Below, one piece after another: positions 7,014-39,413 of a stretch of DNA of 40,542 nucleotides. The notes beneath the pieces are model-generated. The model worked only from the letters and a program-made list of their open reading frames with translations. It did no database searches and was not told the origin of the DNA. This DNA comes from an uncultured Treponemataceae bacterium (GTDB taxonomy: Bacteria > Spirochaetota > Spirochaetia > Treponematales > Rectinemataceae). The stretch covers positions 1 to 40,542 of the forward strand of contig CAZRYP010000002.1 in NCBI GenBank assembly GCA_964604295.1, given 5' to 3'. Every line of letters begins with the position of its first letter. Position 1 is the first letter of the stretch. The position numbers were made by a program, and so were the translations under genes.

Positions 7014-7051
7014 GCGACTATCTCCTTGGAGGGATCGGTTGCCTGCCCGCG

Positions 7052-7972
7052 TCATCGGGCGCCGCGTTCCGCGACCGCGCGGGCGAGAAGGAGGGAACGG
7101 AAGCGGTTCGCCGCGTCGTCCGAACGCGAGTTGAGGACGGCAGGGACGGCCGCGCCGAACACGAGGCCCCCCCAGACCGCGTTTCCGTGGAACTTGTAGC
7201 TTTTTCCCAAAGCGTTGGCCGCTTCCAGGTTCGGCGCGAGGATGAGGTCAGGGTCCCCGCAGACGATCGACGAGGCGAGGCCCTTCTCCACGGCGCATTC
7301 GCGGCTTATGGCAGCGTCGTACCCGAAAGGACCTTCTATGACGAAGCCCTCGAATTCTCCGGCCTTCGACATCTCCGCCAGCCTGGCGGCGTCCGTCGTG
7401 GCGGGCATCCTCGTGCTGACGGTTTCCACCGCGGCGAGGGCGGCTACCTTGGCGGGGGCTATCCCCAGCGCCTCCCACAGGGGCCTCGAATTCCTGACGA
7501 TGTACGCCTTCTCTTCGAGCGTGGGGGCTATGACGATCGCGTTGTCGCTCACCGCGAGCAATTTATGATAGCTCGACATCTGGAACACCGACAGATTCGT
7601 GAGTACGGGGGATCGGCGTATGCCGGTCTCCCTGTCGAGTATCGCCCTGAGATAATACTCCGATTTGAGGCCGCCCTTGACCAGGATGCGGGCGCCCCTG
7701 TTCCGTACGGCCGCCACCGCCAGGGCCGCCGCCTCGGCCGGAGTCCCTGCCTGCGTGATCTCGTACAACGAGAGATCGTCGCCTATGTCGCGGACGCATC
7801 GCCTGATCGAGTCGGCGTCGCCCGACACATGGCAAAGCCCTATGAAGCCGGCCTTGTGTCCCTTGAGCAGGCTGCCGAGGACCTCTGGGTCATCGGCCTG
7901 GGCGACGGCCACAGGCACCGGTCCGAGCGCCGACATGGAAAGCTCCAGTTCCCCGAATGTCCTGATGCTCAT
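7052..7972 (-). CDS. ptb: Phosphate butyryl/branched-chain acyltransferase
   Basis: A 306-aa PTA/PTB-fold protein (ILVKGGLKSE, AIVIAPTLEEK, PDLILAPNLEAANALGK). It sits 4 nt downstream of a butyrate-kinase gene. Confidence 0.8.
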   Translation of the reverse strand: MSIRTFGELELSMSALGPVPVAVAQADDPEVLGSLLKGHKAGFIGLCHVSGDADSIRRCVRDIGDDLSLYEITQAGTPAEAAALAVAAVRNRGARILVKGGLKSEYYLRAILDRETGIRRSPVLTNLSVFQMSSYHKLLAVSDNAIVIAPTLEEKAYIVRNSRPLWEALGIAPAKVAALAAVETVSTRMPATTDAARLAEMSKAGEFEGFVIEGPFGYDAAISRECAVEKGLASSIVCGDPDLILAPNLEAANALGKSYKFHGNAVWGGLVFGAAVPAVLNSRSDDAANRFRSLLLARAVAERGAR

Positions 7973-7976
7973 CTAT

Positions 7977-11912: not shown

Positions 11913-11985
11913 GGGCCGCTAGCTCAGTAGGTAGAGCAACGCCCTTTTAAGGCGTGGGTCACGTGTTCGAATCACGTGCGGCTCA
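11913..11985 (+). tRNA. tRNA-Lys (anticodon UUU)
   Basis: The cloverleaf was folded by hand. Acceptor GGGCCGC/GCGGCTC has one G-U pair. D arm is GCTC-AGTAGGTA-GAGC. Anticodon arm is ACGCC-CTTTTAA-GGCGT. The variable loop is GGGTC and the T arm is ACGTG-TTCGAAT-CACGT. The discriminator is A, the length is 73 nt, and CCA is not encoded. Confidence 0.93.
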
Positions 11986-19083: not shown

Positions 19084-19137
19084 CGATATATCGCATGGAT
19101 ATTTGTGATATTTCGCGATATTGCGGATATCGCGATC
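19084..19137. repeat. Array of GATAT-core repeats and CG-ATAT-CG palindromes in a divergent promoter region
   Basis: GATAT occurs at 19085, 19098, 19107, 19117 and 19126, with spacings of 13, 9, 10 and 9 nt. There are also palindromes CGATATATCG (19084-93) and ATCGCGAT (19129-36), and the inverted repeat CGCGATAT (19114-21) with ATATCGCG (19127-34). Confidence 0.6.
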
Positions 19138-19170
19138 AAGAATCTCGATTTCGGAAAGGAGGGCATTTCG

Positions 19171-21276: not shown

Positions 21277-21398
21277 GCCTTCCGGCGGCCCGCCGGGCGT
21301 CGCGGACTCTTCCGCCGGCCCGGCGGGCCGCCGGACAGGGCCTTGCCCGCGCCCGGCCGCTTGCCGGGCCGGGCGGGTCCTAATATCATGGAGCGGCG

Positions 21399-22085
21399 AT
21401 GAACAGGATCGATGGCGGGCCGGTCCGTCGGGTTTTCCACGGGGAACTCGCCCTCGCGCTCGGGATAACGCTGCTCGGCATGAGCCTTGCCTTCTACGCC
21501 AAAGGCGACATGGGCATGTCGACGCTTTCACTCATGGCTTTCGTGATGAGCCGTGTCGTCCCAGCGGCGAGCTTCGGCACATGGAACTATATAATCCAGT
21601 GCGCGATGATGCTCGTCCTCGTCCTTCTCCTGAAAAAGATCAAGCCAGGCTATTTCATCTCCTTCGGCCTGGCCATAGTCTATGGCCTTCTCGTGGACTT
21701 TTTCTCCTTCTTCGTCGCGATGCTGCCCGACGGCCTTCTCCCGCGGGGGCTCTGCTATCTTGCGGGCTTCTGCGGCATGGCCGCCGGGACAGCCCTGCTC
21801 CTGAAAAGCGGGATGCCTATCCTTCCCTTCGATACCTTCATGAGGGACATCACGCTGAACTATGACATTCCCTACCGGAAGATCCGCACAGGCTTCGACA
21901 TTTCCACTTTCGCCTTCTCGGCCCTGCTTGGCATGACCTGCCTTGGCTCCTTCCAGGGCATCGGCCCGGGCACCCTCGTCAATGTGGCGCTCATGGGGCT
22001 CGCGGTGTCGAAGGTATCGGAGTTCCTGGACAGGCGATTCGTTTTCCGTGTCCTGAGCAGGCGGCTGGGTTCGCTCTCTTCATGA
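21399..22085 (+). CDS. DUF6198/YczE-like integral membrane protein
   Basis: A 228-aa polytopic protein (GMSTLSLMAFVMSRV..., GMPILPFDTFMRDI...). It is distantly similar in layout to the 16961 gene. Confidence 0.5.
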   Translation: MNRIDGGPVRRVFHGELALALGITLLGMSLAFYAKGDMGMSTLSLMAFVMSRVVPAASFGTWNYIIQCAMMLVLVLLLKKIKPGYFISFGLAIVYGLLVDFFSFFVAMLPDGLLPRGLCYLAGFCGMAAGTALLLKSGMPILPFDTFMRDITLNYDIPYRKIRTGFDISTFAFSALLGMTCLGSFQGIGPGTLVNVALMGLAVSKVSEFLDRRFVFRVLSRRLGSLSS

Positions 22086-22205
22086 AGGCCAGGCGGGTGC
22101 GGGTTCAAATCCGGACCGCCTGCCCGTGCCGGAATAGAAAAATCGGCTTATACTTCCGTCAGGAACATTTGTCGCGATGGCGAAGGCGATGAAGTGGAGG
22201 GATTC

Positions 22206-23224
22206 ATGAAAAGACACATCCTTGGAACGGCGCTACTTGCATGCGCCCTCGGCGCGGCCTCGGCTCAGGGCCTCGCGAATCTGGACGCGGTTCCTGGGCT
22301 CCAGCCCGGATCCGTCCTCGTGCTCACGATCGGCGCGGGGGCATCCTCGGGCCAGGTCTGGGGAACCGATATCTATACGACTGACTCGAACCTGGGAGCG
22401 GCGGCCGTGCACGCGGGCGTCCTCGCCGACAGGACGACGGGCACCGTCATCGTCGAGGTGCTCCCCGGAATGCAATCCTACGAAGGCTCCAGCAGGAACG
22501 GCGTGACGAGCGCGAAGTGGGGAAGCTTCGGGAAGAGTTTCCGCTTCCTGAAATCCCTGTCGGGACAGGCGGTCATGCCGGCCAAGCCGACAGTCCAGAG
22601 GATCTACGCCTTCGATGACGAGAGCGCTCTCGTCAGGATAAAGCCGGTTCCGGGCGCCGTCGCCTATTTCAGGCTTACGGGCTCCGCTTCGGGCAGGATC
22701 TGGGGGACGGGTACTTATACGATCGACTCGAGCCCCGGCATGGCGGCCGTGCACGCGGGTGTCCTCGGAACGGGGCAGTCGGGCGTCGTGAAAGTGACGA
22801 TTCTGCCCGGGCTCGGCTCCTACGAGGGCAGTTCGCGCAACGGCGTCTCGTCCTTGTCCTACGGCGCCTACGGGGCAAGCTATACGATCGAGCCGGCTCC
22901 GGCCGGAGCCCAGGTCGGCTCCCTGATAGCCGATCCCGGCACCGTGGCGAGGCTGCCTGGAGCCGCGGCGGGGCAGAGCTACGTCATATGGGTGGCGGGA
23001 CAGGCTGGCGGAGGGTCGATCTGGGGTTCGGGCCAGTACACCCGGATTCCAGCCTCGCGACAGCCGTGGTCCATGCCGGGCTCATCCCTGACGGAGGGGC
23101 GGGGCCGGTCATCGTGCGCGTCCTGCCGGGGCGGGCTTCCTACGAGGGGAGCGCGCGGAATGGCGTCACTTCTTCGGCCTACGGCGCCTACGGATTGAGC
23201 TACACCCTCGAAGCCGCGCGGTAG
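22206..23224 (+). pseudogene. Secreted protein with three tandem LCCL domains, interrupted by a 1-nt frameshift
   Basis: The ATG at 22206 follows GGAGGG, with signal peptide MKRHILGTALLACALGAASAQG. LCCL repeats 1 and 2 are WGTDIYTTDSNLGAAAVHAGVL...YEGSSRNGVTS and WGTGTYTIDSSPGMAAVHAGVL...YEGSSRNGVSS. Repeat 3 begins in frame (WGSGQYT) and continues only in the neighbouring frame (PDSSLATAVVHAGLI...YEGSARNGVTS, stop at 23224). The shift is at the CCC run 23041-23043. Confidence 0.75.
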
Positions 23225-25783: not shown

Positions 25784-25809
25784 CGAGCGATACGATGGAG
25801 GGGAACCTC

Positions 25810-26718
25810 ATGGTGACAGTGGAAAATGTGTCCAAATCCTATTCGAGCGTGCGTGCCGTGGACAACCTGTCCTTCGAGGCCAGGCCGGGCGAGATCTTCG
25901 GTCTCATAGGCCCCAACGGCGCGGGCAAATCGACGACGATCCGCATGATCATGAACATCATAGCTCCCGATTCGGGAAGGATACTCTTCGAAGGGAAGCC
26001 CCTCACCGAGGCCGACAAGGCCCGGATCGGCTACCTGCCCGAGGAGCGGGGCTTGTACAGGAAAGCCAGGGTGGGCGAAGTCCTCGAATACCTCGCCGCC
26101 ATAAAGGGCGCGAAGCAGGCGGAGGCCCGCGCGTCCATCGATGGATGGCTCGAGCGTTTCGGCATCGCCGAATGGAAGAACCGCAAGGTTTCCGAACTCT
26201 CGAAGGGCATGGCACAGAAGGCCCAGTTCATCGGCGCCATCGCCCACAATCCTTCGGTCGTCTTCTTCGACGAACCCTTTTCCGGCCTCGATCCCGTCGC
26301 CCAGGACGAACTGCTCGCCGTGATGGTCGAACTGAGGGAGAAGGGCGCGACCGTGCTTTTTTCCACCCACATCATGGAACAGGCGGAGAAGATCTGCGAG
26401 CGTATTCTCCTCGTGAACAAGGGGCGCGAAGTATTCTACGGACCCGTGTCCGATATCAAGGCGAAATACGGCCGCAACGCCGTCCAGCTGGAATTCGACG
26501 GCGACGGTTCCTTCGTCCGCGGCCTCGATTTCGTGGCTTCGGTCAACGCCTATCCCCGCTGGATAGAGGTGGAGCTGAAGGAGGGGGCCGATCCCGACCG
26601 ACTCTTCACGGCCGTGGCTGGCCGCCTCCGCATGCGGAGGTTCGAGGCCGTGGCTCCGTCCCTGCACAAGATCTTTGTCAGGCTGGTCGGGAACGCCGGG
26701 GAGGCCGAAAATGCCTAA
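25810..26718 (+). CDS. ABC transporter ATP-binding protein (ABC-2/NatA-like exporter type)
   Basis: I prefer the ATG at 25810 (GGAGGGG 6 nt upstream); the in-frame ATG at 25795 is the alternative. Motifs: Walker A GPNGAGKST, signature LSKGMAQKAQF, Walker B VVFFDEPFSGLD, H-loop STHIM. Confidence 0.9.
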   Translation: MVTVENVSKSYSSVRAVDNLSFEARPGEIFGLIGPNGAGKSTTIRMIMNIIAPDSGRILFEGKPLTEADKARIGYLPEERGLYRKARVGEVLEYLAAIKGAKQAEARASIDGWLERFGIAEWKNRKVSELSKGMAQKAQFIGAIAHNPSVVFFDEPFSGLDPVAQDELLAVMVELREKGATVLFSTHIMEQAEKICERILLVNKGREVFYGPVSDIKAKYGRNAVQLEFDGDGSFVRGLDFVASVNAYPRWIEVELKEGADPDRLFTAVAGRLRMRRFEAVAPSLHKIFVRLVGNAGEAENA

Positions 26719-27966: not shown

Positions 27967-27978
27967 GGGAACGTTCCC
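27967..27978. promoter_or_regulatory. LacI-type operator candidate O1 (perfect palindrome GGGAACGTTCCC)
   Basis: A perfect 12-bp palindrome with the central CG typical of LacI/GalR operators, 60 nt upstream of the lacI-family gene start. Confidence 0.55.
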
Positions 27979-28022
27979 AAATTACTCTTGCGCGATTCCT
28001 GAAGTCGTGATACGTTAGTTTC

Positions 28023-28034
28023 GGGAACGTTCCC
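28023..28034. promoter_or_regulatory. LacI-type operator candidate O2 (identical GGGAACGTTCCC)
   Basis: An identical palindrome 56 bp from O1, ending 3 nt before the ATG at 28038. Confidence 0.55.
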
Positions 28035-28037
28035 ATT

Positions 28038-29078
28038 ATGAGCAAGCCCAAGATAAGCATCCATGAAGTCGCCCGTCTCGCGGGCGTCTCCAAGAGCACC
28101 GTGTCGCGCGTCGTGGCCGACAGCGGCGGTTCGGTGAGTCCCAGGGCTCTCGAGGCTGTCAACAGGGCTATAGAGCAGCTGGGCTACAAGAAGAACGTCA
28201 TGGCCGCCGGCCTGAGGACCCAGAGAACCTACATGGTCCTCGTGATGGTCCCGGACATCGCGAACCACTTCTGGTCGGAGATCATAAGGGCGGTGCAGGA
28301 CAGGCTGGAGCCCGAAGGCTACTCCGTCGTCATCGGAAGCACGGACTGGAGCGAAACCAGGGAAGACCAGTACTATGAGCTCGCCCGCTCCTCGCGCTTC
28401 GACGGTCTCATACTCAACAGTGTCACCGACAATATCGATCTCATCAAGGACCTCGGGGTTCCCGGCGTTCTCATCGGCGAGCGCGCCGCTGCGCAGGACA
28501 TCGACACCGTCGGAACCGATACGATACAAGCCACTCGCCTGGCCATGGGCTACCTCTGGGACACCGGCCACCGCCGCATCGCGATAGCCACGAGCGACCA
28601 CGGGAGCGAACGCTATCTTTCCCTCCGCGGCAGGGCCTACAAGGATTTCCTGCACGAGAAGGGCCTGGCCTATGATCCCGACCTCGTGTTCTCCGTGAAC
28701 CTGGACGAGGAGGGGGGAAGGGAGCTGGCGAGATCGGTCCTGGCCCTGCCCGACCGGCGCAGGCGCATGGACGCCCTTTTCTGCGGCAACGACGCCCTCG
28801 CCATAGCCGCGATGGCCGAGTTCAGGAAGTTCGGCGTCATCCCCGGCATCGACATCTCGGTCATCGGCATGGACGACGTGCCGGCGGCCGCGCAGACCTA
28901 TCCCCCCCTCACCACGGTGAGAAAGCCGAGGGATCTGATCGGGGCGGCGGCCGCCGAGCTCCTGCTCGGAAGAATGAAGGATCCGGCAAGGCCGGCGGAA
29001 AAGCGGCTCTTCCCCGGCGAACTCGTCATACGGGACAGCGTCATTCAAAAGAGGAACACAGATGAAGACAAGAGCTGA
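28038..29078 (+). CDS. LacI family transcriptional regulator
   Basis: The N-terminal HTH is IHEVARLAGVSKSTVSRVV, followed by a periplasmic-binding-protein-like effector domain. The protein is 346 aa. Confidence 0.9.
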   Translation: MSKPKISIHEVARLAGVSKSTVSRVVADSGGSVSPRALEAVNRAIEQLGYKKNVMAAGLRTQRTYMVLVMVPDIANHFWSEIIRAVQDRLEPEGYSVVIGSTDWSETREDQYYELARSSRFDGLILNSVTDNIDLIKDLGVPGVLIGERAAAQDIDTVGTDTIQATRLAMGYLWDTGHRRIAIATSDHGSERYLSLRGRAYKDFLHEKGLAYDPDLVFSVNLDEEGGRELARSVLALPDRRRRMDALFCGNDALAIAAMAEFRKFGVIPGIDISVIGMDDVPAAAQTYPPLTTVRKPRDLIGAAAAELLLGRMKDPARPAEKRLFPGELVIRDSVIQKRNTDEDKS

Positions 29079-30057
29079 AGTGATTGCCGACCGCGCGGGC
29101 TACGAATCCAGGGCCGCCGGTTCGCTCATCGGCCTGGCCGTCGGCGACGCCGTGGGCGATCTGGGGCGGAGCCAGGAGCACAGGAACCGATACGGTCTCA
29201 TCGTACGCCTCCTGGACGACGGGAAGAGCACGGACGATACGGAATTCGGCGTTCTGACCGCCAGGGCTCTCCTCGACTGCGGGGGCCGACTCACGCCGCA
29301 AGCGACGGCGGCGGCCTGGCGAAAATACATAATCGGCCGGGGCGGCGCCAAAAAGCGCGCCGGGCGGCCGCTCTACGGCGCCATAGAGAATCTGGGCAGG
29401 GGCATGGAACCGCCCTTCACCGGCAGATACAACGTCATGAACGTGGACGACGGAGCGGCGATGCGCGCCACCCCCCACGGCATCCTGCGCGCCGGGGATC
29501 CCGATGGAGCGGCCGAACTCGCGAAGGCCGACGCCTGCGTGAGCCATGACGCCGACGGCATCTGGGCCGCCCAGGCCGTCGCCGCGAGCGTGGCCGTGGC
29601 CATCGCGGGAGGCTCGGTCGACGAGATCGTCGCCGCCGGAAGGGCGAGATTTCCCGCCGGCAGCTGGATCGGCTCAGCCATGGACATCGCGATGGGCATC
29701 TGCGACCGCAATCCCGATATCGAGCTGGCCTACGAGGAACTCCACACCAAGCTGTGGACACCCGAGCATGCCACCTCGCCCGAGGCCATTCCCCAGGTCT
29801 ATGCCATTTTCAGGCTCACCGGTGGCGATCCCCGGCGCGGTCTCCTCTGGAGCGCCAATTTCGGCAGGGACGCCGACACGATCAGTGGCCTCGTCTGCTC
29901 CTTCGCGGGAGCGATGCACGGCCTCTCGGCATTCCCGGAAGCCTGGACGGCCCGCCTCAGAAAGCCTTCCGGCACCTGCCTCGATTTCGCCGCGGAAGAG
30001 GACATCGTCGCGCTCGCCGAAGAGCTCGTCGCGCTCTCCTGCGGGATGGGGGCGTGA
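29062..30057 (+). CDS. ADP-ribosylglycohydrolase (ARH/DraG) family protein, 331 aa
   Basis: It overlaps the lacI-family stop by 17 nt. ARH metal-site contexts are GLAVGDAVG, GKSTDDTEFG and FGRDADTISGLVCSFAGAMHG. Confidence 0.8.
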   Translation: MKTRAEVIADRAGYESRAAGSLIGLAVGDAVGDLGRSQEHRNRYGLIVRLLDDGKSTDDTEFGVLTARALLDCGGRLTPQATAAAWRKYIIGRGGAKKRAGRPLYGAIENLGRGMEPPFTGRYNVMNVDDGAAMRATPHGILRAGDPDGAAELAKADACVSHDADGIWAAQAVAASVAVAIAGGSVDEIVAAGRARFPAGSWIGSAMDIAMGICDRNPDIELAYEELHTKLWTPEHATSPEAIPQVYAIFRLTGGDPRRGLLWSANFGRDADTISGLVCSFAGAMHGLSAFPEAWTARLRKPSGTCLDFAAEEDIVALAEELVALSCGMGA

Positions 30058-30061
30058 GGAA

Positions 30062-30997
30062 ATGAGCGAAAGCGGTCAGCGGGCGCGACTCCCTATGTCG
30101 ATCGGTCCCGGCTCGGCCCTGCGGAAGCAGGAGTGGTCCCTCCTCGTCCTCCTCGCTCCCGCACTCCTCTATTTCCTCGTCTATCACATCATACCGCTCT
30201 TCGGGATGGCGATGGCCTTCCAGGATTTCAGGATCATCGGGAAAAGCCCCTTCGTCGGGCTCAAGCACTTCAAGGCCCTTTTCAGCTCGCCTTCATTCAT
30301 GCAGGTTTTGGCCAACACCCTGATCATCAGCTTCATGAAGATCGTGCTCTTCTTCCCCCTGCCCATCGCCTTCGCCCTCATGCTGAACGAAGTGCGCGCC
30401 TCCTTCATGAGAAAATTCATCCAGTCGACCACCTACCTGCCTCACTTCCTTTCCTGGGTGGTCATCGCCGGCGTATGGATCGCCTTCCTTTCGCCCAGCA
30501 CGGGAGGCATGAACCAGCTGCGCGGCATTTTCGGCCTTCCCGCCATCGATTACATGACGGACAAGGGTTCCATCCGCTGGGTGCTCTTCGCCTCCGAAAC
30601 ATGGCGCAGCCTCGGATGGGATTCGATCATCTACATGGCCGCCCTGGCGAGCATCAGCCCCAGCCTCTACGAATCGGCCGACCTGGACGGGGCGGGACCG
30701 CTGCAGAAAATGCGTTTCATCACCCTGCCCGAGCTCACCTCGACCATGGTGACCGTCTTCATCCTGAACATGGGGTTCTTCCTCAACGCGGGTTTCGACC
30801 AGGTCTTCAACATGATGAACGACTCGGTGATCAGCGTGGTGGATATTCTCGACACCTACGTCTACAGGATAGGCCTCCTGAACATGCAGTACTCGATCTC
30901 CACGGCGGCCAGCCTCTTCAAGGGCGTCATCGGCCTCGTCCTCATCCTCGCGGCCCACAAGGGCTCCCTCAAGGTGACGGGGAAGGGGATGTGGTGA
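30062..30997 (+). CDS. ABC sugar-type transporter permease (LplB/YteP-like)
   Basis: The ATG lies 4 nt after the ARH stop. LLAPALLYFLVYHIIPLFGMAMAFQDF matches an LplB-type N-terminus, and the EAA-loop region is YESADLDGAGPLQKMRFITLP. Confidence 0.85.
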   Translation: MSESGQRARLPMSIGPGSALRKQEWSLLVLLAPALLYFLVYHIIPLFGMAMAFQDFRIIGKSPFVGLKHFKALFSSPSFMQVLANTLIISFMKIVLFFPLPIAFALMLNEVRASFMRKFIQSTTYLPHFLSWVVIAGVWIAFLSPSTGGMNQLRGIFGLPAIDYMTDKGSIRWVLFASETWRSLGWDSIIYMAALASISPSLYESADLDGAGPLQKMRFITLPELTSTMVTVFILNMGFFLNAGFDQVFNMMNDSVISVVDILDTYVYRIGLLNMQYSISTAASLFKGVIGLVLILAAHKGSLKVTGKGMW

Positions 30998-31893
30998 TGC
31001 GCAAAGTGAAAACGACCACGGTCGAGATAATCTGGCGAAGCGCCATCGCGATTTTCCTCCTCGGCATCAGCGTGGTGGTCGTCGTTCCCCTGCTCAACCT
31101 CCTCGCCCTCTCCCTCTCCGACCCCGCGAGGGTGTCGGAGGTGCGAGGCCTCACCATCGTGCCCAAGGGACTTTCCCTCATCAATTACCGCGTCCTGGCG
31201 GCCAATCCGCTCTTCGTCAGAAGCATCCTGAATTCCGTCTACATCACCTTCGTGGGCACAGCCCTTAACCTCCTCGTCACCGCGATGGCCGCCTTCGCCA
31301 TGACGAGGCCCAGACTGCCCTTCAAGCGCTTCTTCCAGGTCCTGATCGTCGTGGTGATGATCTTCGAGCCGGGACTCATCCCAGAATACCTCGTCGTCAA
31401 GAGAATAGGCCTCATGGGAAGCCTCTGGGCCGTCATCCTCTACAAGACCGTGAACGTCTATTACCTCATCATCATGATGCGCTACTTCGAGGAAATCCCC
31501 GCCTCCTTCATCGAGGCCGCCCAGGTGGACGGGGCCAGCTACATGAAAATCCTGGCGAAAATAGTTCTGCCTCTGTCCAAGCCCGCCCTCGCGACGCTCG
31601 GACTTTTCTATGGCGTGTTCCACTGGAACGAATACTTCAGGGCGAGCATCTATCTCACCGACCCCAACAAGTATCCGCTCCAGCTGATCCTGAGGCAGTT
31701 CGTCGTTCTCGACGACACAGCCTCGCTCATCGGGTCGGGCGCGCTTTTCAGCTACGATGAAGCGGCCCGCCTCAGCTACGACGCGCTGCAGGCGAGCACC
31801 ATCATCGTGGCCATGCTGCCGGTTCTCGTTATCTACCCTCTGATCCTCAAGTATTACGCGAGAGGAGTGATGGAAGGTGGAGTCAAGGAATAG
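30997..31893 (+). CDS. ABC sugar-type transporter permease (LplC/YtcP-like)
   Basis: The ATG shares one nt with the upstream TGA. The EAA loop is IEAAQVDGASYMKILAKIVLPLSKP. Confidence 0.85.
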   Translation: MRKVKTTTVEIIWRSAIAIFLLGISVVVVVPLLNLLALSLSDPARVSEVRGLTIVPKGLSLINYRVLAANPLFVRSILNSVYITFVGTALNLLVTAMAAFAMTRPRLPFKRFFQVLIVVVMIFEPGLIPEYLVVKRIGLMGSLWAVILYKTVNVYYLIIMMRYFEEIPASFIEAAQVDGASYMKILAKIVLPLSKPALATLGLFYGVFHWNEYFRASIYLTDPNKYPLQLILRQFVVLDDTASLIGSGALFSYDEAARLSYDALQASTIIVAMLPVLVIYPLILKYYARGVMEGGVKE

Positions 31894-31914
31894 GACAAGG
31901 AACAGGAGGTTATC

Positions 31915-33342
31915 GTGAAAAAGCACAGTATCGTGTCTTTGCTGATGGCGGTTCTTCTCGTCTGCGGAGTCGCCTTCGTCGGAGCGGCCACACCCAAGGT
32001 GAGGCTCGTCCTCAAGGATCTGGATACCGATCCCAATTCGGCCCAGTTCATCCAGCTCATCGAAAAGGGCATGGCCGCTGCCGGGACGCCCGTCGATATC
32101 GAGATCGTCAAGGTGCCGGCCGGCAACTACGCCGAAAAGATCAGCCTGATGATCATGTCGGGAGACGTCCCCGATCTCATCTATTTCCAGGGCGGCGACG
32201 ACAAGATCGCCATGCAGGACCTGCTCGTGGACCTTCGCCCCTATGTCGACAAGTCCAAGAGCCTGAAAACCGTCCTGGACCAGCACAGCAAGCTGCGCCT
32301 CGAGAGCTATCCCTACCTCGTGTGGGTCGCCCCTCCCCGCGTCCGCGCTCCTGTGATACGGCAGGACTGGTTCGATTCCCTCCCCTCCGCCAAGGCCCTG
32401 GCCGCGAAACCGACCGTCGACAACTACTACGCCCTCTTCAAGGATCTCGTCCAGAAGAAGGGAGCGAAGTACGGCATCTCCGTGACCGGCGCCACCAACG
32501 GCGTCGAGGAGCTCGACTCGATATTCGACGCCGCTTTCGGCATCACCTCGACCTGGATGAAGGGTGCCGACGGCCAGTGGACCTATGCCCGGGTCACGCC
32601 GAACGAAAAGACCAAGCTCGAATTCTACGCCAAGCTCTACAAGGAAGGCATCCTCGATCCCGAATATCTGACCAAGAAGTGGGATTCCAAGGAGCAGGTG
32701 TTCTATGAGGGCAAGGCGGGCATGGTGGCCGGCGTGGCGCCAGGCAGCCTCGATGTCTACGCGAACAAGATGCTGAAGACCCAGGGCACGAGCATCGTTC
32801 CCCTTCCTCCCCCCGCCGGGATCGCCCAGGGCCTCGGCCCCTTCGTGGACGTGACCAAGGAAGCCCGAGGCTTCGCGATTCCCACGACCTCCAAGGTCAA
32901 GGATGCCGCCTTCGCCGTGATCGACTTCATGTGGAGCCCGGCCGGTCTCAAGATCGCCAAGCTCGGCATGCCCGGACTCCATGTCGTCGAGGAAGCCAAC
33001 CGCTATGTCCTGACCGACAAGTACTCCGAATGGTACAACGGCTGGTTCGGCGATTCCTTCAACGGCTTCAATCCCGACAAGCCCCTCTCGAGGCCGATAA
33101 TGACCGACGCGGCCGTGGCCTCGGCCAAGCTGGCGACCAAGTACATGATGGCCGACAAGACCTTCCTCATCCCCGAGCAGTACGTCACCAACTGGGACGC
33201 CATGACGAATCTGTACAAGGAATATATCGCCGACATCGTCACCGGCAAGAAGCCCGTCTCCGCCTTCGACGAGTATGTGCAGAAGTGGTACAAGGCCGGC
33301 GGCACCGAGCTGTCCAAGTACGCGGCCACCAAGCTGAAATAA
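31915..33342 (+). CDS. Extracellular solute-binding lipoprotein (LplA-like, family 1 SBP)
   Basis: A GTG start follows GGAGG. The signal and lipobox are LLMAVLLVCG. The 475-aa length and motifs (DLIYFQGG, WDSKEQVFYEGKAGM) fit LplA-type binding proteins. No cognate ATPase gene is in the locus. Confidence 0.8.
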   Translation: MKKHSIVSLLMAVLLVCGVAFVGAATPKVRLVLKDLDTDPNSAQFIQLIEKGMAAAGTPVDIEIVKVPAGNYAEKISLMIMSGDVPDLIYFQGGDDKIAMQDLLVDLRPYVDKSKSLKTVLDQHSKLRLESYPYLVWVAPPRVRAPVIRQDWFDSLPSAKALAAKPTVDNYYALFKDLVQKKGAKYGISVTGATNGVEELDSIFDAAFGITSTWMKGADGQWTYARVTPNEKTKLEFYAKLYKEGILDPEYLTKKWDSKEQVFYEGKAGMVAGVAPGSLDVYANKMLKTQGTSIVPLPPPAGIAQGLGPFVDVTKEARGFAIPTTSKVKDAAFAVIDFMWSPAGLKIAKLGMPGLHVVEEANRYVLTDKYSEWYNGWFGDSFNGFNPDKPLSRPIMTDAAVASAKLATKYMMADKTFLIPEQYVTNWDAMTNLYKEYIADIVTGKKPVSAFDEYVQKWYKAGGTELSKYAATKLK

Positions 33343-33419
33343 GCGGCGGGTCCGTAGTTCGATTGTAACGAGGGCGCCGTGCGCTCCGCTGATGCGGGCC
33401 GCGCGGCGAGCGCTCTGGG

Positions 33420-33439
33420 GACGCCGCCGACGCGGCGTC
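33420..33439 (+). promoter_or_regulatory. Intra-operon GC hairpin (possible attenuator or mRNA stabiliser)
   Basis: A perfect 8-bp stem GACGCCGC/GCGGCGTC with loop CGAC is followed by a moderately T-rich tail (TCAGTATCTTCACTTT). It lies in the 124-nt gap between the SBP gene and the next CDS. Confidence 0.3.
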
Positions 33440-33466
33440 TCAGTATCTTCACTTTGGAGTAAGCCG

Positions 33467-35608
33467 ATGTCTTCCATACCAAGCGATTATCTCGAACGCG
33501 TCTACGCGGGTTTTCTGGGCAAGAACGTGGGAATCAGGCTCGGCGCGCCCGTGGAACCCGCCATCTGGACCTACGAGCGTATCCGCGAGGTGTATGGCGA
33601 CGTTAGGTCCTATCTGAAACCCTACAGAAATTTCGCCGCCGACGATGACGCCAACGGCCCCGTGTATTTCGTGCGTCCCCTGCTTGAGGCGGCGGAGAAT
33701 GCCGTGCCGGGAGCCGTGCCGGCGACGACGCCTGCCGATGTCGGCAAGGCCTGGCTGGACTACGCGAGGGAAGGCGTCGGGATGTTCTGGTGGGGCGGCT
33801 ACGGCCGGAGCACCGAGCACACGGCCTACCTGAACCTCAAGCATGGGATCCAAGCGCCCGAATCCGGCTCTATCGAGCGAAACGGCCTGGTGCCGGCCGA
33901 GCAGATAGGCGGGCAGATTTTCATCGACACCTGGGGCCTGGTATGGCCGGGAAATCCCGGAAAGGCGGCGGATTACGCTGCCGCCGCGGCTTCCGTGTCC
34001 CACGACGGCGAGGGGCTGCTCGGCGCGCGCTTCATCGCGGGCTGCATAGCCGCCGCCTTCGTCGAGAAGGATATCCGTCCGGTGGTCGAGACAGGCTTGG
34101 GCCTTCTGCCCGCCGGTTCGAAATACGCCGAGGTGGTGAGGGCGGTAGTGGACTTCCATGACTCCCATCCCGGGGACTGGCGCCCCTGCCAGGAATATCT
34201 CATCGCGTCCTGGGGCTACGATAAATGGCCCGGGCTCTGCCACATCATCCCCAACGCGGGCGTTTGCGCCCTGGCTCTCCTCTACGGCGCCGGCGATTTC
34301 GCCCGCACGGTGGAAATCGCCACCATGTGCGGATGGGACACCGATTGCAACGCCGGGAATGTGGGCACGATCGCGGGCGTCCTGTACGGTCTGGACTCGA
34401 TTCCGGCGCATTACCGGGCACCCATCAACGACAGCATCGTCCTGTCGGGCCTGCCCGGCGCGCTGAACATCCTCGATATCCCGACTTTTTCCAGGCGGCT
34501 CTGCGCCGCCGGGTACAAGCTGGCGGGAGAGCAGGTTCCCGCGCCCGTGGCCGCCGCCCTCGAGCGGGGCGACGGCGAGAAGGCGCTGGATTTCGATTTC
34601 CTTCTGCCGGGATCGACGCACGGCATGAGGGTTTCGGACCCCGTGGGCTTCGCGGCCGCGCACAGGGCGGGCATGGGGCTCGAGGGCGGCGGCGCGCTGG
34701 AGTTCCGCTTCGAGCGCCTGACCCGGGAGATGGGCGGGAAGCTCTTCTACAAGCCCTTCTACAGAAGGGAAGATTTCGACGATGAGCGATACAGCCCGGT
34801 CTTCTCGCCGGCGGCGAGGCCGGGGCAGACCGTGAGGCTCCGTTTCAGGATGGAGCGGTGGGAGGGGCAGAGCGTCGGCATCGAAGGGTACGCGAGGGAC
34901 AGCTTCACGAAACGGGACATGATCGCGACGAAGACGCTCTTTCCCGAAGTAGGCGAAGAGTATTGGATCGAATTCGCGATTCCGGATACGCAAGGATCCT
35001 CCGTCGACGAGATAGGGATCAAACTCACGAGTTTTTCAGGAAAGGGCAAGCGCGATTCGGGCCGCCTCCTCGTCGACAGGTTCTCCGTGGGCGGCAAAGC
35101 GCGTTATGCGATCGATATTGCGAAGCAGGCCGTGGAATTCGGCTGCGTCACGCCGTTTTCCCATGACGGCGGCTCCTGGTCCGTGGAGGAGGGGCGACTC
35201 CATCTCATGACTCCGGCGAGGGCCTTCTCCTGGACGGGAGGCTACAGGGTGGGCGGCCAGAGCGTCGCCGCGCCCGTGAAGCCCCTCGCGGGCGACAGCC
35301 ATCTCCTGATCGCGAGGGCGGGCGGCGCCATGAGGGGTTATCTGGCGGGATTCGACGGGGAGGGCGGGGTATCCATCTTCAGGAACGATTTCGGCGTCTC
35401 GCGCATCGCCCACGCCGACTTCCCGTGGAAGCACGGCGTCGATTACGGACTCCGCGTCGAGGCGGTCAAGGATCGCATAACGCTCTTCGTCGATGGCTCT
35501 GCCGTCCTCGAGGCCAGGGACGATACCTTCGCGACGGGCATGGTCGGCTGCGGCGCGCTGCGGGCCGCCAGGACCCTGTTCGGACCCTTCGCTGTCGAGG
35601 AGCTCTGA
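33467..35608 (+). CDS. ADP-ribosylglycohydrolase family protein with about 300-aa C-terminal extension (713 aa)
   Basis: The ATG at 33467 follows GGAG; the ORF-track start at 33392 is Arg-rich and unlikely. ARH contexts are FLGKNVGIRLGAP, AADDDANGPVYF and CGWDTDCNAGNVGTIAGVLYG. Residues from about 400 to 713 have no motif I recognise and are beta-rich, possibly a lectin or jelly-roll fold. Confidence 0.75.
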   Translation: MSSIPSDYLERVYAGFLGKNVGIRLGAPVEPAIWTYERIREVYGDVRSYLKPYRNFAADDDANGPVYFVRPLLEAAENAVPGAVPATTPADVGKAWLDYAREGVGMFWWGGYGRSTEHTAYLNLKHGIQAPESGSIERNGLVPAEQIGGQIFIDTWGLVWPGNPGKAADYAAAAASVSHDGEGLLGARFIAGCIAAAFVEKDIRPVVETGLGLLPAGSKYAEVVRAVVDFHDSHPGDWRPCQEYLIASWGYDKWPGLCHIIPNAGVCALALLYGAGDFARTVEIATMCGWDTDCNAGNVGTIAGVLYGLDSIPAHYRAPINDSIVLSGLPGALNILDIPTFSRRLCAAGYKLAGEQVPAPVAAALERGDGEKALDFDFLLPGSTHGMRVSDPVGFAAAHRAGMGLEGGGALEFRFERLTREMGGKLFYKPFYRREDFDDERYSPVFSPAARPGQTVRLRFRMERWEGQSVGIEGYARDSFTKRDMIATKTLFPEVGEEYWIEFAIPDTQGSSVDEIGIKLTSFSGKGKRDSGRLLVDRFSVGGKARYAIDIAKQAVEFGCVTPFSHDGGSWSVEEGRLHLMTPARAFSWTGGYRVGGQSVAAPVKPLAGDSHLLIARAGGAMRGYLAGFDGEGGVSIFRNDFGVSRIAHADFPWKHGVDYGLRVEAVKDRITLFVDGSAVLEARDDTFATGMVGCGALRAARTLFGPFAVEEL

Positions 35609-36825
35609 TGGACGGAATACGCTTCACCGCGGGATCGCGCGCCAAGTCGGACTGCTCCGTGGCCTACGCGAAGGGCGTGGCTCCGGTATCGGTCGCCCTG
35701 CGCTCCAGCGTCGCGTCCCTTTTCGGCAAGGCCATCGAGGCTGCGGTCCTCCGGGTCGCCGCCGAATTCGGCGTCGAGGGAGGCGGCTTCGAAGTCGACG
35801 ACGACGGCGCCCTAGACGGCACCGTGGCGGCGCGCGCGGAAGCCGCCCTGCGCATGGCGGGATTCACGCGCAAGTCCGCCGCGGCCCCTGCCGCCCCCGC
35901 GCGCGCCGCCTCGCCTCGGGACAGGCTTCGCCGCGCCAGGCTCTACCTGCCCGGCGACCAGCCCCATCTGGCGATCAACGCCGATCTGTTCGGCGCCGAC
36001 TGCCTCATCTTCGATCTCGAGGACGCCGTCGTCGCGGAGCGAAAATTCGAGACGAGGATTCTCGTCCGCCGCAGCCTCGAGGAGAGCCTCATGTTCGGCG
36101 GCTGCGAAGTCGTCGTGAGGATCAATCCGCTTTCGGGGAGCTGCGGACGCGAGGATCTGGAAGAAATCGTGCCGGCCCGGCCTCACGCGGTCATACTCCC
36201 CAAATGCGGATCGGCCGGAGACGTCGAGGAGGCCGATTCGCTGATCACCCTTCTCGAAAAAAAAGCCGGTATCCTGCCAGGCTCCATAGGCCTCATGCCC
36301 CTCGTCGAGACGGCGGCCGGCGTTCTCGCCGCAAGGGAAATAGCGCTAGCCTCGCCGCGCAACCTCTCCCTCTGTTTCGGACAGGAGGATTTCTCGAGGG
36401 ACATCCGCTCGGTCTCCTCCCCCGGCGCCGCCACCGACGACGCCGCGACTGGAGCCATGCCCGGCATCGAAAGCCTCCTGGCGCGCCAGATGATCGTGCT
36501 CGCGGCGAGGGCGGCCGGCATCGATCCTTTGGATACGGTCTATGCCGATATCGGGGACAAAGAGGGCCTCCTGCGTTCCTGCGCCGAAGCCAGGGCTCTC
36601 GGCTTTTCGGGCAAGGGAGTACTCCATCCCCTGCAGATTCCCTTCGTCATGAAGGCATTCCGCCCCACAGCCGAGGAAGCGGCGATCGCGGAAAGGACGG
36701 TCGCGGCCTTCGACGCGGCCGCGGCCGAAGGCCGCGGCGCGATCGCCGTGGACGGCCGGATGGTCGACGCGCCGGTGGCGGAAAAAGCCCGCGCGCTTCT
36801 GCGCGATTTCAGGGGAGAAGCCTGA
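35608..36825 (+). CDS. Fusion of citrate-lyase acyl carrier protein (CitD-like) and citrate/citramalate (citryl-ACP) lyase beta subunit (CitE-like)
   Basis: The ATG shares one nt with the upstream TGA (TGATG). Residues 1-95 align by eye with enterobacterial CitD (AGSRAKSDCSV; LRSSVASLFGKAIEAAVL; FEVDDDGALDGTVAARAEAAL). An Ala/Pro linker follows. The rest matches CitE/HpcH-HpaI (LYLPGD, LIFDLEDAV, VVRIN, ILPKC, PLVETAAG, FGQEDFSRD, DTVYADI, GKGVLHPLQI, AVDGRMVDAPV). Confidence 0.8.
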   Translation: MDGIRFTAGSRAKSDCSVAYAKGVAPVSVALRSSVASLFGKAIEAAVLRVAAEFGVEGGGFEVDDDGALDGTVAARAEAALRMAGFTRKSAAAPAAPARAASPRDRLRRARLYLPGDQPHLAINADLFGADCLIFDLEDAVVAERKFETRILVRRSLEESLMFGGCEVVVRINPLSGSCGREDLEEIVPARPHAVILPKCGSAGDVEEADSLITLLEKKAGILPGSIGLMPLVETAAGVLAAREIALASPRNLSLCFGQEDFSRDIRSVSSPGAATDDAATGAMPGIESLLARQMIVLAARAAGIDPLDTVYADIGDKEGLLRSCAEARALGFSGKGVLHPLQIPFVMKAFRPTAEEAAIAERTVAAFDAAAAEGRGAIAVDGRMVDAPVAEKARALLRDFRGEA

Positions 36826-36826
36826 C

Positions 36827-38404
36827 ATGGAATGGATCACCAACTCGCTCGGAAGGGCCCTACCCTCGGAACTGAATGGAAAGAAGCTCAGGCCCTTCAT
36901 GGGAGCCCACGCGGCTTCCTCCGGAGGCAGCGCCGCCGACGCCGCGGTCTCCGGCGCGCCGGCCGACGCCGCGAAAAGACCCTTGCCCGCGCGCGGGAAA
37001 CCCTCCAAACTGGTCTCCGGCTGGGATGAGCTCCTCGATCGCCTCGACCTTCATGACGGCGCGACGATTTCCTTTCACCACCACCTCCGCGACGGCGACA
37101 GGATAGTCAACGAAGTGGTAGCCCGGCTCGCCGCCCGCGGACTGCGCGGCCTCACGATCGCTCCCACCGCCCTCTTTCCCGTCCATGAAGCCCTCCTGCC
37201 CCATATCCGTTCAGGCGTCATCACCAAGGTCGAAGGCTCGATGTACGGCGCGATAGGCAATGCCTGCTCCAGGGGCGAGATCAGGGATGTCTGCGTCCTC
37301 CGCTCCCACGGAGGACGCCAGAGAGCCGTCCAGGATGGGGAACTCGTCATCGACGCGGCCTTCATCGCCGCCCCCTGCGCCGATCCCTTCGGCAACGCGA
37401 ACGGGCGCTCCGGCAGATCGGCCTGCGGCCCTCTGGGCTACGCCCTTCCCGATTCCGAGCGCGCGCGGAAGGTGGCGGTCGTCACCGACGGACTTGTGCC
37501 CTATCCCTGTCAGCCCTGGTCCATCAAAGGCGCCAATGTCGATTACGTCCTCGAGGTGGAGAGCATAGGCGACCGCTCGAAGATCGTCTCCGGCTCCATC
37601 GGGCTGACCCGGAGCCCCACCCAGCTCATCATCGCCGATCTCACCGCCAGGTTCATCGAGGCGGCGGGCATCATGAAGGAAGGATTTTCCTTCCAGGCGG
37701 GGGCGGGCGGCATTTCCCTCGCGGCGACCGTCTACCTTTCCGAAAGGATGAGGAAGGCCGGGGGGAAGGCTTCCTTCGCCCATGGAGGCGCCACCAAGGT
37801 CCTCGTCGATCTGCTCAAGGAAGGGCTCCTGGGATCCATCGTCGACCTGCAGAGCTTCGACCTGGACGCGGTGCGTTCCTGCGCGGAAAACCCGCGCCAC
37901 ATAGAATCCGATCCCTTTTCGTCCTATGGACCCAGGTCGGCCGGCTGCGTCGCGAACATGCTCGATGTCGCCATCCTGGGCGCCACGGAAGTGGACCTCG
38001 ATTTCAACGTCAACGTGAACACCCATTCCGACGGACTCCTCCTCCACGGCATCGGGGGCCACACGGATGCCGCTTCCGGCGCGGCCTGCACCATCATAAC
38101 GGCCCCTTCCTTCCGCAAGCGCATTCCCATAGTCCGCGAAAGGGTCACCACGGTGACCTGTCCAGGCGAAGTCGTCGATGTCATCGTGACCGAGCGGGGC
38201 ATAGCGGTGAATCCGAAGCGCGGGGACCTGGCCGAGAAGGCGCGCGGGGCGGGGCTCCCCCTCGTCTCTCTGGAAAGGCTCATGGACGACGTCAGGCGCA
38301 TCACCGGGATACCGGAAGCCCCCCGTTTCGGGGAGAGGCCGGTAGCCCTCATCCAATGGCGGGACGGCACCGTCATCGACGTCGTGAGAGAGTTGGCCAC
38401 CTAA
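36827..38404 (+). CDS. citF: Citrate lyase alpha subunit (citrate CoA/ACP-transferase)
   Basis: It starts 1 nt after the previous stop. DGATISFHHHLRDGD, VLRSHGGRQRAVQDGELVIDAAFIAAPCADPFGNANG and the 525-aa length match CitF closely. Confidence 0.85.
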   Translation: MEWITNSLGRALPSELNGKKLRPFMGAHAASSGGSAADAAVSGAPADAAKRPLPARGKPSKLVSGWDELLDRLDLHDGATISFHHHLRDGDRIVNEVVARLAARGLRGLTIAPTALFPVHEALLPHIRSGVITKVEGSMYGAIGNACSRGEIRDVCVLRSHGGRQRAVQDGELVIDAAFIAAPCADPFGNANGRSGRSACGPLGYALPDSERARKVAVVTDGLVPYPCQPWSIKGANVDYVLEVESIGDRSKIVSGSIGLTRSPTQLIIADLTARFIEAAGIMKEGFSFQAGAGGISLAATVYLSERMRKAGGKASFAHGGATKVLVDLLKEGLLGSIVDLQSFDLDAVRSCAENPRHIESDPFSSYGPRSAGCVANMLDVAILGATEVDLDFNVNVNTHSDGLLLHGIGGHTDAASGAACTIITAPSFRKRIPIVRERVTTVTCPGEVVDVIVTERGIAVNPKRGDLAEKARGAGLPLVSLERLMDDVRRITGIPEAPRFGERPVALIQWRDGTVIDVVRELAT

Positions 38405-38427: not shown

Positions 38428-38476
38428 TTGACAAAAATCTCATACTTTATTAGTGTATTAGATATCTAATACACTA
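38428..38476 (+). promoter_or_regulatory. Promoter with overlapping 26-bp perfect palindromic operator
   Basis: TTGACA (38428-33), a 17-nt spacer, then TAGTGT (38451-56). The palindrome TAGTGTATTAGAT/ATCTAATACACTA spans 38451-38476 and abuts the RBS GGAG. Confidence 0.6.
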
Positions 38477-38486
38477 GGAGTGTGTG

Positions 38487-39413
38487 ATGGTACAGATTGA
38501 ATCCATGACCTTCGGGTATGGAAAGGGACCGCTCTTCGAGGGTCTCGATCTGAGGCTCGAGCCGGGAACGGTATTCGGGCTTCTGGGATTGAACGGGGCC
38601 GGCAAGACAAGTCTCCTGAAGCTTCTCGCCGGCGCCCTGCGCCCTCGGTCGGGCGCTATCCGCGTTTTCGGCGCGGAACCGTGGAAGAGGGAGGCATCCT
38701 TTCTCGCCGACACGATCTTCGTGCCCGAGGACCCCTGGCTCCCCGCGGTCAAGCCGGCGGCATGGCTCGAGCGCTACGCCGTCTTCCGCCCGGCCTTCGA
38801 CAAGGAGCGCTTCGCCGCCCTGTCGCGGGAGTTCTCCCTCGACGACGACAAGCTGCTCACCAGGTATTCCTACGGCCAGAGGAAGAAATTCGCCCTCGCC
38901 GCCGCCCTGTCGAGCGGCGCCCGGCTCCTCCTCCTCGACGAGCCGACCAACGGCCTCGACATTCCTTCCAAATCCCAGTTCCGGCGAGCCCTCGCCGCGT
39001 CGGTCGATCCCGACCGGGTCGTCATCCTGTCCACCCACCAGGTCCGCGACCTGGAGCGGGTGATAGACCCCGCGGTCATCGTCCACGGCGGCAGGATTCT
39101 CTTCACCCTCGGCGCGGAGGAAATGGCCGAGAAACTGGGTTCGGCCCGCGTGCGGGAACCCGGCCCCGAGGTCGTCTACGCCGAAAGGGACAGTATGGGC
39201 TATTCGGCGCTCATAGAGCGCGGACGCTGCGACGGGTCCATAGGGGAAATAGGGACGGCCGATCTCGAACTCGTGTTCAACGCCGCGATCGCCATGCCCG
39301 GGCGCCTCGAAGCCGCCCTGAGAGGGGAAGCGCTTCCCGTCCTCGATCCCGCGGAGACTGTCGTACGGGAAAATTCCGCGGCCGAAGCCGCCGGCGAGGA
39401 GGCCGCAAAATGA
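38487..39413 (+). CDS. ABC transporter ATP-binding protein (YtrB-like)
   Basis: The ATG at 38487 is 6 nt after GGAG; the ORF-track GTG at 38484 is the alternative. Motifs: Walker A GLNGAGKTS, signature YSYGQRKKFALAAAL, Walker B LLLLDEPTNGLD, H-loop STHQV. Confidence 0.85.
   Translation: MVQIESMTFGYGKGPLFEGLDLRLEPGTVFGLLGLNGAGKTSLLKLLAGALRPRSGAIRVFGAEPWKREASFLADTIFVPEDPWLPAVKPAAWLERYAVFRPAFDKERFAALSREFSLDDDKLLTRYSYGQRKKFALAAALSSGARLLLLDEPTNGLDIPSKSQFRRALAASVDPDRVVILSTHQVRDLERVIDPAVIVHGGRILFTLGAEEMAEKLGSARVREPGPEVVYAERDSMGYSALIERGRCDGSIGEIGTADLELVFNAAIAMPGRLEAALRGEALPVLDPAETVVRENSAAEAAGEEAAK

Follow-up and report, generated by a model that had tools for sequence, protein, structure and literature searches.

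An eight-gene locus on the forward strand of contig CAZRYP010000002.1 (assembly GCA_964604295.1, from an uncultured Treponemataceae bacterium; the first 40,542 nt of the contig are called the window here) joins a LacI regulator, two enzymes of the ADP-ribosylglycohydrolase fold (ARH1 and ARH2), a sugar-type ATP-binding cassette (ABC) importer and a citrate-lyase-like complex made of a CitD-CitE fusion and CitF. We propose, with confidence that stands near the midpoint, that these genes form one catabolic operon, repressed by LacI, for the breakdown of a beta-hydroxy carboxylic acid that is imported as a ribose-containing conjugate. The locus probably encodes a pathway not described before, for the import and splitting of a ribose-linked organic acid, and its gene set is present in two phyla. 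The parts belong to known families, and it is their assembly, conserved and modular, that seems to be undescribed: literature searches returned no description of the importer/ARH/citrate-lyase-like combination. Our analysis rests on gene content, gene coupling, conserved operators, synteny, alternative modules and fold assignments; what is said below of catalysis, at every step, and of the kind of substrate is predicted from these.

A first-pass annotation of the window had made its reading depend on the ARH-importer-CitDEF synteny recurring in other genomes, and in a gene-neighbourhood analysis the arrangement was not unique to this one. We screened 80 genomic loci with the proteins of the window and of a Cohnella locus, and counted modules in the 53 loci having at least 8 kb on either side of ARH2. 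The short second ARH is present in all 53, both permeases and the binding protein in 48, and a ribokinase-like PfkB gene in 35. Importer, short ARH and long ARH make up a core conserved in Spirochaetota and Bacillota. Relatives of the long ARH (ARH2) occur in more than 570 genomes of these phyla in a scan of one genome per species, the Bacillota including Paenibacillus, Cohnella, Clostridium, Lachnospiraceae and Oscillospiraceae, and the nearest relatives belong to Rectinemataceae and Treponemataceae spirochaetes. The complete eight-gene order is shared by Rectinema and its relatives at 50-85% identity between unlike flanks, and it recurs in five metagenomic relatives and one 50%-identical locus; a metagenome scan with CitDE, which returned six loci, served as confirmation. 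CitDE and CitF directly follow ARH2 in every spirochaete locus with enough flank, and the genes around them differ. Because the arrangement recurs in dozens of genomes, it goes beyond chance.

The part of the locus that would handle the acid is exchangeable. CitDEF is found in 11 of the 53 loci, and a second module, AtuA (PF07287) together with DUF4387, in 37; this pair is non-homologous to CitDEF and is not in the window. No locus carries both modules and five carry neither. Within Clostridia of otherwise identical architecture, the two substitute for each other. One of the five loci with neither, from Paenibacillus (L039, 12115-17146), has after ARH2 a LacI gene, a carrier-less CitE-like lyase, a 717-aa ADP-forming acyl-CoA synthetase and a PfkB kinase, a set that may be a CoA-dependent equivalent of CitDEF chemistry. 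Another locus with neither acid module (L076) is pared down to the importer, two ARHs and a kinase. That one position is filled by three devices, non-homologous or built differently, speaks for a carboxylic acid among the products of the pathway, cleaved as a thioester or an equivalent. In some Lachnospiraceae, two extra genes lie between permease 2 and the binding protein (L056, 5440-7946; L057, 4773-7465; L066, 5545-8039; also L023 and L028); they encode a protein with an FGE-sulfatase/EgtB-like domain and a 613-aa protein without a Pfam or NCBIfam match.

CitDEF itself has come to stand beside the ARH core from at least three lineages. In the first, CitD is canonical and separate and is accompanied by citC-citX-citG (L017, L030 and L042); CitF is 59% identical to that of E. 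coli, and the canonical citDEF-citC-citX-citG sets of these three clostridial loci are 55-59% identical to E. coli. The second is another clostridial CitDEF type, with CitF 47% identical to the E. coli protein (L062, L071, L078 and L081), and the third is the spirochaete CitD-CitE fusion, for which the corresponding value is 44%. The canonical clostridial sets would suit an alternative that we consider improbable, namely that the locus holds two unrelated adjacent units, a ribose-scavenging importer/ARH set and an ordinary citrate or citramalate lyase that is fed by a carrier and served by citCXG encoded elsewhere. Such an arrangement would also fit the CitF score above the NCBIfam citF equivalog cut-off, the fused CitDE-CitF genes that occur without ARH genes in two further loci (L095 and L096), and the five core loci without a CitDEF or AtuA module. 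By contrast, it would leave unaccounted for the adjacency kept over two phyla with three CitDEF lineages, the translational coupling of ARH2 to citDE, and the strict alternation of 11 CitDEF loci with 37 AtuA+DUF4387 loci and no overlap. Further, a citrate carrier was found in no locus: tblastn with the E. coli protein detected no citT homologue in the window, and no other carrier type is conserved in related loci.

Domain assignment with Pfam and NCBIfam models, and start and stop codons read directly from the window, reproduced all eight genes and every junction of the first-pass annotation. The genes occupy 28038-38404 of the + strand. The lacI gene (28038-29078; 346 aa; Pfam LacI, Peripla_BP_1 and Peripla_BP_3) overlaps ARH1 (29062-30057; 331 aa) by 17 nt, and a gap of 4 nt separates ARH1 from permease 1, an ABC permease of the CUT1 sugar type (30062-30997; BPD_transp_1), which in turn overlaps permease 2 (30997-31893; BPD_transp_1) by 1 nt. 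The gene for the solute-binding lipoprotein (31915-33342; 475 aa; SBP_bac_1) follows after 21 nt, and ARH2 (33467-35608; 713 aa) after 124 nt. ARH2 and the citD-citE fusion (35608-36825; 405 aa; PF06857 at residues 8-84 and PF03328 HpcH_HpaI at 110-342) share a TGATG overlap, and citF (36827-38404; 525 aa; PF04223, 489 bits) begins after a gap of 1 nt. Coupling of the TGATG type between ARH2 and citDE is retained in relatives (in L001 and L002 the overlap is 4 nt), and there is no hint that citDE-citF is expressed separately. The flanks of the locus are unrelated to it: CorA and an ABC-2 exporter lie upstream, and downstream is another ATPase (38484-39413) with its own promoter-like region and palindrome. 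From the tight same-strand junctions, together with the conserved operators and synteny, we infer that the eight genes form one operon.

The perfect 12-bp palindrome GGGAACGTTCCC, an operator-like sequence, occurs exactly twice in the 40.5-kb window, at 27967-27978 (distal copy) and at 28023-28034 (proximal copy, 3 nt before the lacI ATG). The copies are 56 bp apart and both precede lacI. Six related spirochaete loci (L004, L006, L010, L012, L016 and L036) keep the pair upstream of lacI, and its conservation is limited to that region. The regulator has the features of its family, HTH_LacI and a periplasmic-binding-protein-like domain, and near the promoter stands a palindrome centred on CG. 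Because the pair also stands upstream of lacI in the six related loci, the two GGGAACGTTCCC sites are very likely LacI operators, as predicted from sequence. The best NCBIfam matches of LacI are RbsR-type models, all below cut-off.

The 124-nt spacer between the binding-protein gene and ARH2 (33343-33466, + strand), described earlier as a large gap with a hairpin, has that size and contains two hairpins on folding, one of them a 10-bp GC-rich stem at 33418-33441 (minimum free energy −65 kcal/mol; z-score against shuffles −2.2), as well as a GGAG ribosome-binding site before ARH2. No T run follows the hairpins, and the structure is therefore more likely a stabiliser or attenuator than a full terminator. 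Rfam gave no RNA family match within the locus. The promoter scan placed no promoter-like site before citDE, in scans whose promoter and terminator counts did not exceed those of shuffles and are hence uninformative.

Both ARHs exceed the PF03747 gathering cut-off of 26.2, ARH1 with 155.5 bits and ARH2 with 176.9 bits over residues about 15-315 of its 713, which bears out the assignment of two ADP-ribosylglycohydrolase-fold enzymes. On motif inspection, ARH1 has the metal-ligand motifs STDDTE and GRDADT and ARH2 has AADDDAN and GWDTDCN; residues DDD59-61 and D291-T292-D293 of ARH2 are invariant across 15 relatives that are 54-83% identical to it. A sequence check found no signal peptide in either protein, and both are predicted to be cytoplasmic. 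The AlphaFold2 model of ARH2 (pLDDT 77) has an ARH3-like helical domain, matched to ARH3 by Foldseek, followed by two beta-sandwich domains resembling lectins or carbohydrate-binding modules (CBMs). The last sandwich aligns to the CBM66 entry 4b1m, a fructan-binding module (Foldseek target TM-score 0.78, rmsd 1.9 Å), and phmmer detected the levanase CBM in ARH2 (E 2e-4). In the model, ARH2 thus appears to be laid out like a glycoside hydrolase with carbohydrate-binding modules, yet it would act in the cytoplasm.

The PF03747 matches and the ARH3-like catalytic fold of ARH2 could also mean that both proteins are classical ADP-ribosylhydrolases and that the imported substrate is of the canonical ADP-ribose type, for example ADP-ribose, O-acyl-ADP-ribose or pieces of poly(ADP-ribose) left by dead cells. 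The organism's group has been described as living on dead biomass, and one locus has a gene of the poly(ADP-ribose) glycohydrolase (PARG) type directly upstream of lacI. We give this possibility little credence, since the importer is of the CUT1 sugar type with a binding protein closest to AlgQ1/AlgQ2, the loci share no conserved Nudix, phosphatase or nucleosidase gene, the PARG-like gene is confined to that one locus, and the citrate-lyase-type or AtuA module would be left without a role. Genomic context argues instead for a non-nucleotide riboside as the putative ARH substrate. The PARG-type gene (microbial type, PF10021) lies at 1687-2502 of L097, a metagenomic copy of the eight-gene locus, on the same strand as lacI; none of the other loci has it, and its occurrence in a single locus leaves a part for it in the system unsupported.

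The kinases of the related loci point to ribose as the sugar part. The first-pass annotation had suggested a ribosyl substrate, and this gains support from the ribokinase genes of the 35 loci, two of the three kinases tested reaching equivalog level. The kinase of the Cohnella locus scores 322 bits on the NCBIfam ribokinase equivalog (cut-off 299.65) and a LacI-kinase fusion scores 307.5 bits; the third kinase also matches ribokinase best. Ribose fits the ARH fold because all members known to us cleave ribosyl linkages. Fructose, hinted at by the CBM66-like domain, was rejected as the released sugar, the Cohnella kinase scoring 80 bits on fructokinase as against 322 on ribokinase. The LacI-ribokinase fusion is a protein of 651 aa encoded upstream of an AtuA-type ARH locus in four Paenibacillus genomes (L063, 1750-3705; also L035, L038 and L047).

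Two BPD_transp_1 permeases and an SBP_bac_1 binding protein give the importer its CUT1-type features. The best NCBIfam matches are UgpA and GlcT for permease 1 and GlcU, UgpE and MalG for permease 2, all below cut-off. The binding protein, which matches no NCBIfam model, has an N-terminal lipoprotein signal with the lipobox LLVC/G, and among solved structures it is closest to the alginate-oligosaccharide binders AlgQ1 and AlgQ2 (E 1e-16); the likeness to these binders of acidic oligosaccharides is consistent with a carboxylated glycoside as ligand. In agreement with the first-pass annotation, the domain scan found no ABC ATPase gene within the locus, and among the locus and the neighbouring ATPases it found none of the MsmK/MalK type. 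The ATPases at 25795-26718, belonging to the upstream ABC-2 exporter, and at 38484-39413 match AAA_21 besides ABC_tran, and both therefore appear to be exporter-type.

The acidic ligands of AlgQ1 and AlgQ2, together with the CBM-like domains of ARH2, also bear on an unlikely but somewhat better alternative than the two weighed above: the acid on which the lyase or AtuA module acts would come from the sugar itself (a branched-chain or 2-deoxy sugar acid, for instance), and the ARHs would open or trim an unusual furanoside. That some locus kinases fall below the ribokinase cut-off and that the spirochaete loci have no kinase would agree with such a substrate. However, two kinases score above the ribokinase equivalog cut-off, the loci have no conserved oxidoreductase or dehydratase able to convert a sugar to a beta-hydroxy acid, and the contexts in which AtuA and CitDE-CitF occur elsewhere indicate C4-C5 dicarboxylates.

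CitF shares 44% identity with the E. coli protein along its whole length and reaches equivalog level on the NCBIfam citF model TIGR01584 (532.5; cut-off 501.45). For the CitE domain the identity to E. coli CitE is 38%, and on TIGR01588 this domain scores 224.6, short of the cut-off of 443.4, so that only the general HpcH_HpaI domain is matched; the CitD domain scores 54.8 bits on PF06857 and 42 on TIGR01608 (cut-off 63.5). In the earlier assignment of a lyase dependent on an acyl carrier protein (ACP), CitF is the part that reaches equivalog level; CitE and CitD score below their equivalog cut-offs. The genes citC, citX and citG are required to make and acetylate holo-ACP. Searches with the E. 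coli queries (tblastn) found none of them in the window or in the spirochaete loci within 10 kb, matches being confined to the clostridial loci L017, L030 and L042. We call it citrate-lyase-like rather than citrate lyase because the CitE and CitD scores, the accessory genes and the carrier association fail. All spirochaete fusions carry the serine motif [SAR]KSD, in which the conserved Ser is shifted by one position. The CitD-CitE fusion family comprises more than 100 sequence clusters; the fusion occurs without ARH genes in Ozemobacteraceae (L095), and in L096, also without ARH, a 44%-identical CitD-CitE fusion with CitF adjoins genes for Fumerase, Fumerase_C, PrpD and LarA.

The missing citX and citG near all spirochaete loci, the altered carrier serine motif and the translational coupling of ARH2 to citDE could all be read as signs that the ARHs make, trim or recycle the prosthetic group of the lyase, 2'-(5''-phosphoribosyl)-3'-dephospho-CoA, in place of CitG and CitX. 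An alpha-1''-2' ribosyl-ribose bond, a type of linkage that ARH3 cleaves, is part of this group. We nevertheless hold this to be very improbable, and the least probable of the alternatives considered: 42 of the 53 ARH loci lack a CitF-containing CitDEF set and hence the citrate-lyase carrier protein, three loci combine ARHs with full citCXG, and the ARHs travel with the importer, not with CitD. A role for the ARHs as carrier-maturation factors was rejected on the ground that most loci have ARHs without any CitD.

Under the preferred reading, an imported ribose-linked acid, the identity of the acid can be approached through the other contexts of the exchangeable modules. In E. coli O157:H7 Sakai, ECs_0760 and ECs_0759 are 51% and 48% identical to the AtuA and DUF4387 proteins of Cohnella and are placed between methylaspartate ammonia-lyase and the mesaconase FumD. 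In Prevotella nigrescens the gene order is glmS-glmL-glmE-mal-AtuA-DUF4387-fumarase, and on plasmids of Klebsiella and Neorhizobium AtuA-DUF4387 adjoins class I fumarases. Pairs outside ARH loci are 45-52% identical to the ARH-locus pair, and those next to class I fumarate hydratases lie at 16934-18618 of L091 (Sakai), 9001-10720 of L092, 8998-10719 of L093 and 8995-10688 of L094. The best 120 matches of the AtuA homologue search were all at least 68% identical, and the other contexts were taken from annotated plasmids. Clostridia carry CitDEF, taken as citramalate lyase, in the methylaspartate cluster (PMC4682846). The DUF1446 gene has been described as mis-annotated, and the fate of citramalate in E. 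coli O157 given as an open question (PMC4682846). AtuA+DUF4387 of E. coli O157:H7 and Prevotella holds the position of citramalate lyase in glutamate-fermentation clusters, and in related ARH loci, whose pairs are 48-52% identical to those of these clusters, it holds the position of CitDEF, which suggests that AtuA+DUF4387 handles citramalate-type acids.

These contexts also support the hydroxy-acid aglycone that the first-pass annotation had put forward: CitDEF is swapped for other acid modules and never joined to AtuA+DUF4387, and elsewhere the neighbours are mesaconase-type fumarases. A citramalate- or malate-type acid is favoured because CitDE-CitF and AtuA both neighbour hydratases that make 2-hydroxy-dicarboxylates. 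Citrate is less likely because an aerobic Paenibacillus would presumably not need a dedicated module for it. These neighbourhoods make an acid of the citramalate or malate type the most likely choice, ahead of citrate.

The proposed pathway, which follows the first-pass annotation in outline and is the best-supported reading, would begin with uptake of the conjugate by the binding lipoprotein and the two permeases, energised by an ATPase encoded elsewhere. The conjugate would consist of a beta-hydroxy-dicarboxylic acid, of the citramalate or malate type, joined to a ribofuranosyl group. Once it is in the cytoplasm, the two ARHs would cleave its ribosyl linkages to yield D-ribose and the free acid, with the two lectin-like domains of ARH2 holding the sugar part. 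CitF would then load the acid onto the acetylated carrier of the CitD-CitE fusion, releasing acetate, and the CitE domain would cleave the acyl thioester to a 2-oxo acid and regenerate acetyl-ACP.

Several observations weigh against this scheme. The five core loci with neither CitDEF nor AtuA imply that the acid step is dispensable or encoded elsewhere. The fusion has KSD where E. coli and clostridial CitD have ES[GS]D, the site at which classical CitD carries its phosphoribosyl-dephospho-CoA group, and citC, citX and citG are missing from the window and the spirochaete loci. A ribokinase is likewise absent from the window and from the other spirochaete loci within 10 kb, and just two of the three kinases tested passed the ribokinase cut-off, the third falling below it. 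To our knowledge, ARH-fold enzymes act solely on ADP-ribosyl-type substrates, and no natural ribosyl-citramalate or ribosyl-malate turned up in our literature searches. Finally, Dictyoglomus has a DUF1446 gene downstream of mal and is listed among the organisms with CitDEF-type clusters (PMC4682846); if it has both DUF1446 and CitDEF, the equivalence of CitDEF and AtuA is weaker.

A bolder version, which we offer tentatively and with distinctly less confidence than the operon itself, would have spirochaetes, clostridia and paenibacilli harvest a widespread ribofuranosyl conjugate of a citramalate- or malate-type acid by means of a new class of cytoplasmic ARH-fold glycosidases, one of them bearing CBM66-like domains. 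The acid would be cleaved by any of three interchangeable devices, of which AtuA+DUF4387 would be a new citramalate-type lyase. If AtuA+DUF4387 is such a lyase, it would account for the final step, so far missing, of glutamate fermentation in E. coli O157:H7 and Prevotella. The alternation of modules provides a first concrete, testable function for AtuA/DUF1446 and DUF4387 proteins, and the proposal bears on the fate of citramalate in E. coli O157:H7, a question stated in the literature (PMC4682846). ARHs are known for taking ADP-ribose off proteins and nucleotides; were they also to have a conserved catabolic role next to a sugar importer, the fold would reach to the hydrolysis of nutrient glycosides, and this would point to an undiscovered ribose-containing metabolite in soils, guts and anaerobic digesters. 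The fusion with its altered serine motif, in a neighbourhood free of citX and citG, raises the question of how the carrier is loaded.

Other features of the window lie outside the locus. On the − strand, 4537-9149 encodes a two-subunit 2-oxoacid:ferredoxin oxidoreductase, a phosphate acyltransferase (PTA_PTB) and an acetate/butyrate-type kinase; this cluster is the acyl-phosphate fermentation route to which the first-pass annotation alluded. Within 19105-23198 lies a 723-aa protein that unites SLH, chitobiase-C/Fn3-associated, metallo-beta-lactamase and cadherin-like domains; next come a DUF6198 protein and then a protein with two LCCL domains. One tRNA gene (11913-11985) is the sole Rfam match in the window and is situated in the stretch of lowest G+C, about 52-56%. 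Just upstream of the ATPase gene at 38484-39413, a perfect 26-bp palindrome, TAGTGTATTAGATATCTAATACACTA (within 38443-38480), stands behind a TTGACA-like hexamer and is probably the operator of the next operon.

The modules of the locus can each be compared with a known system. ARH1 and ARH2 have the fold and di-metal motifs of ARH3 and DraG (PF03747); they differ from these in very low sequence similarity (phmmer against solved structures, E ~1e-7 or weaker), in the ~370 extra residues that form the two lectin-like domains of ARH2, and in their predicted role, which would be nutrient catabolism behind an importer rather than the undoing of protein modification. The carrier, lyase and transferase are common to the locus, to the citrate lyase of E. 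coli and Klebsiella (citCDEFXG) and to clostridial citramalate lyase, and the same chemistry would be expected, with acyl exchange on an acetylated carrier and Claisen-type cleavage to acetate and a 2-oxo acid. Unlike in citrate lyase, CitD is here fused to CitE and bears the KSD motif, CitE and CitD lie under their equivalog cut-offs, and the genes are embedded in an importer/ARH operon with LacI, with no citC, citX, citG or carrier nearby, nor an oxaloacetate decarboxylase, for which no dedicated search was made. The importer resembles CUT1 systems that have large AlgQ/LplA-type binding proteins and share an MsmK/MsmX-type ATPase, in its two BPD_transp_1 permeases, its ~475-aa lipoprotein and an operon without an ATPase; its binding protein is only distantly akin to AlgQ1 (E 1e-16).

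The Rus loci of Bacteroidetes combine ribokinase and transport genes with variable hydrolases, as the related ARH loci do, and some of them have ARHs and LacI. These hydrolases, which in some loci include ADP-ribosylglycohydrolases, have been proposed to release ribose from ribose-containing nutrients of unidentified nature (bioRxiv 10.1101/574913, Glowacki et al.). Uptake differs, Rus loci using SusC/D-type outer-membrane uptake and a permease where the ARH loci have a CUT1 ABC importer. The window locus itself is without a ribokinase, and a long CBM-bearing ARH and a citrate-lyase-type or AtuA module are unreported in Rus loci. In logic, Rus is the closest described system to the locus of the window and its relatives.

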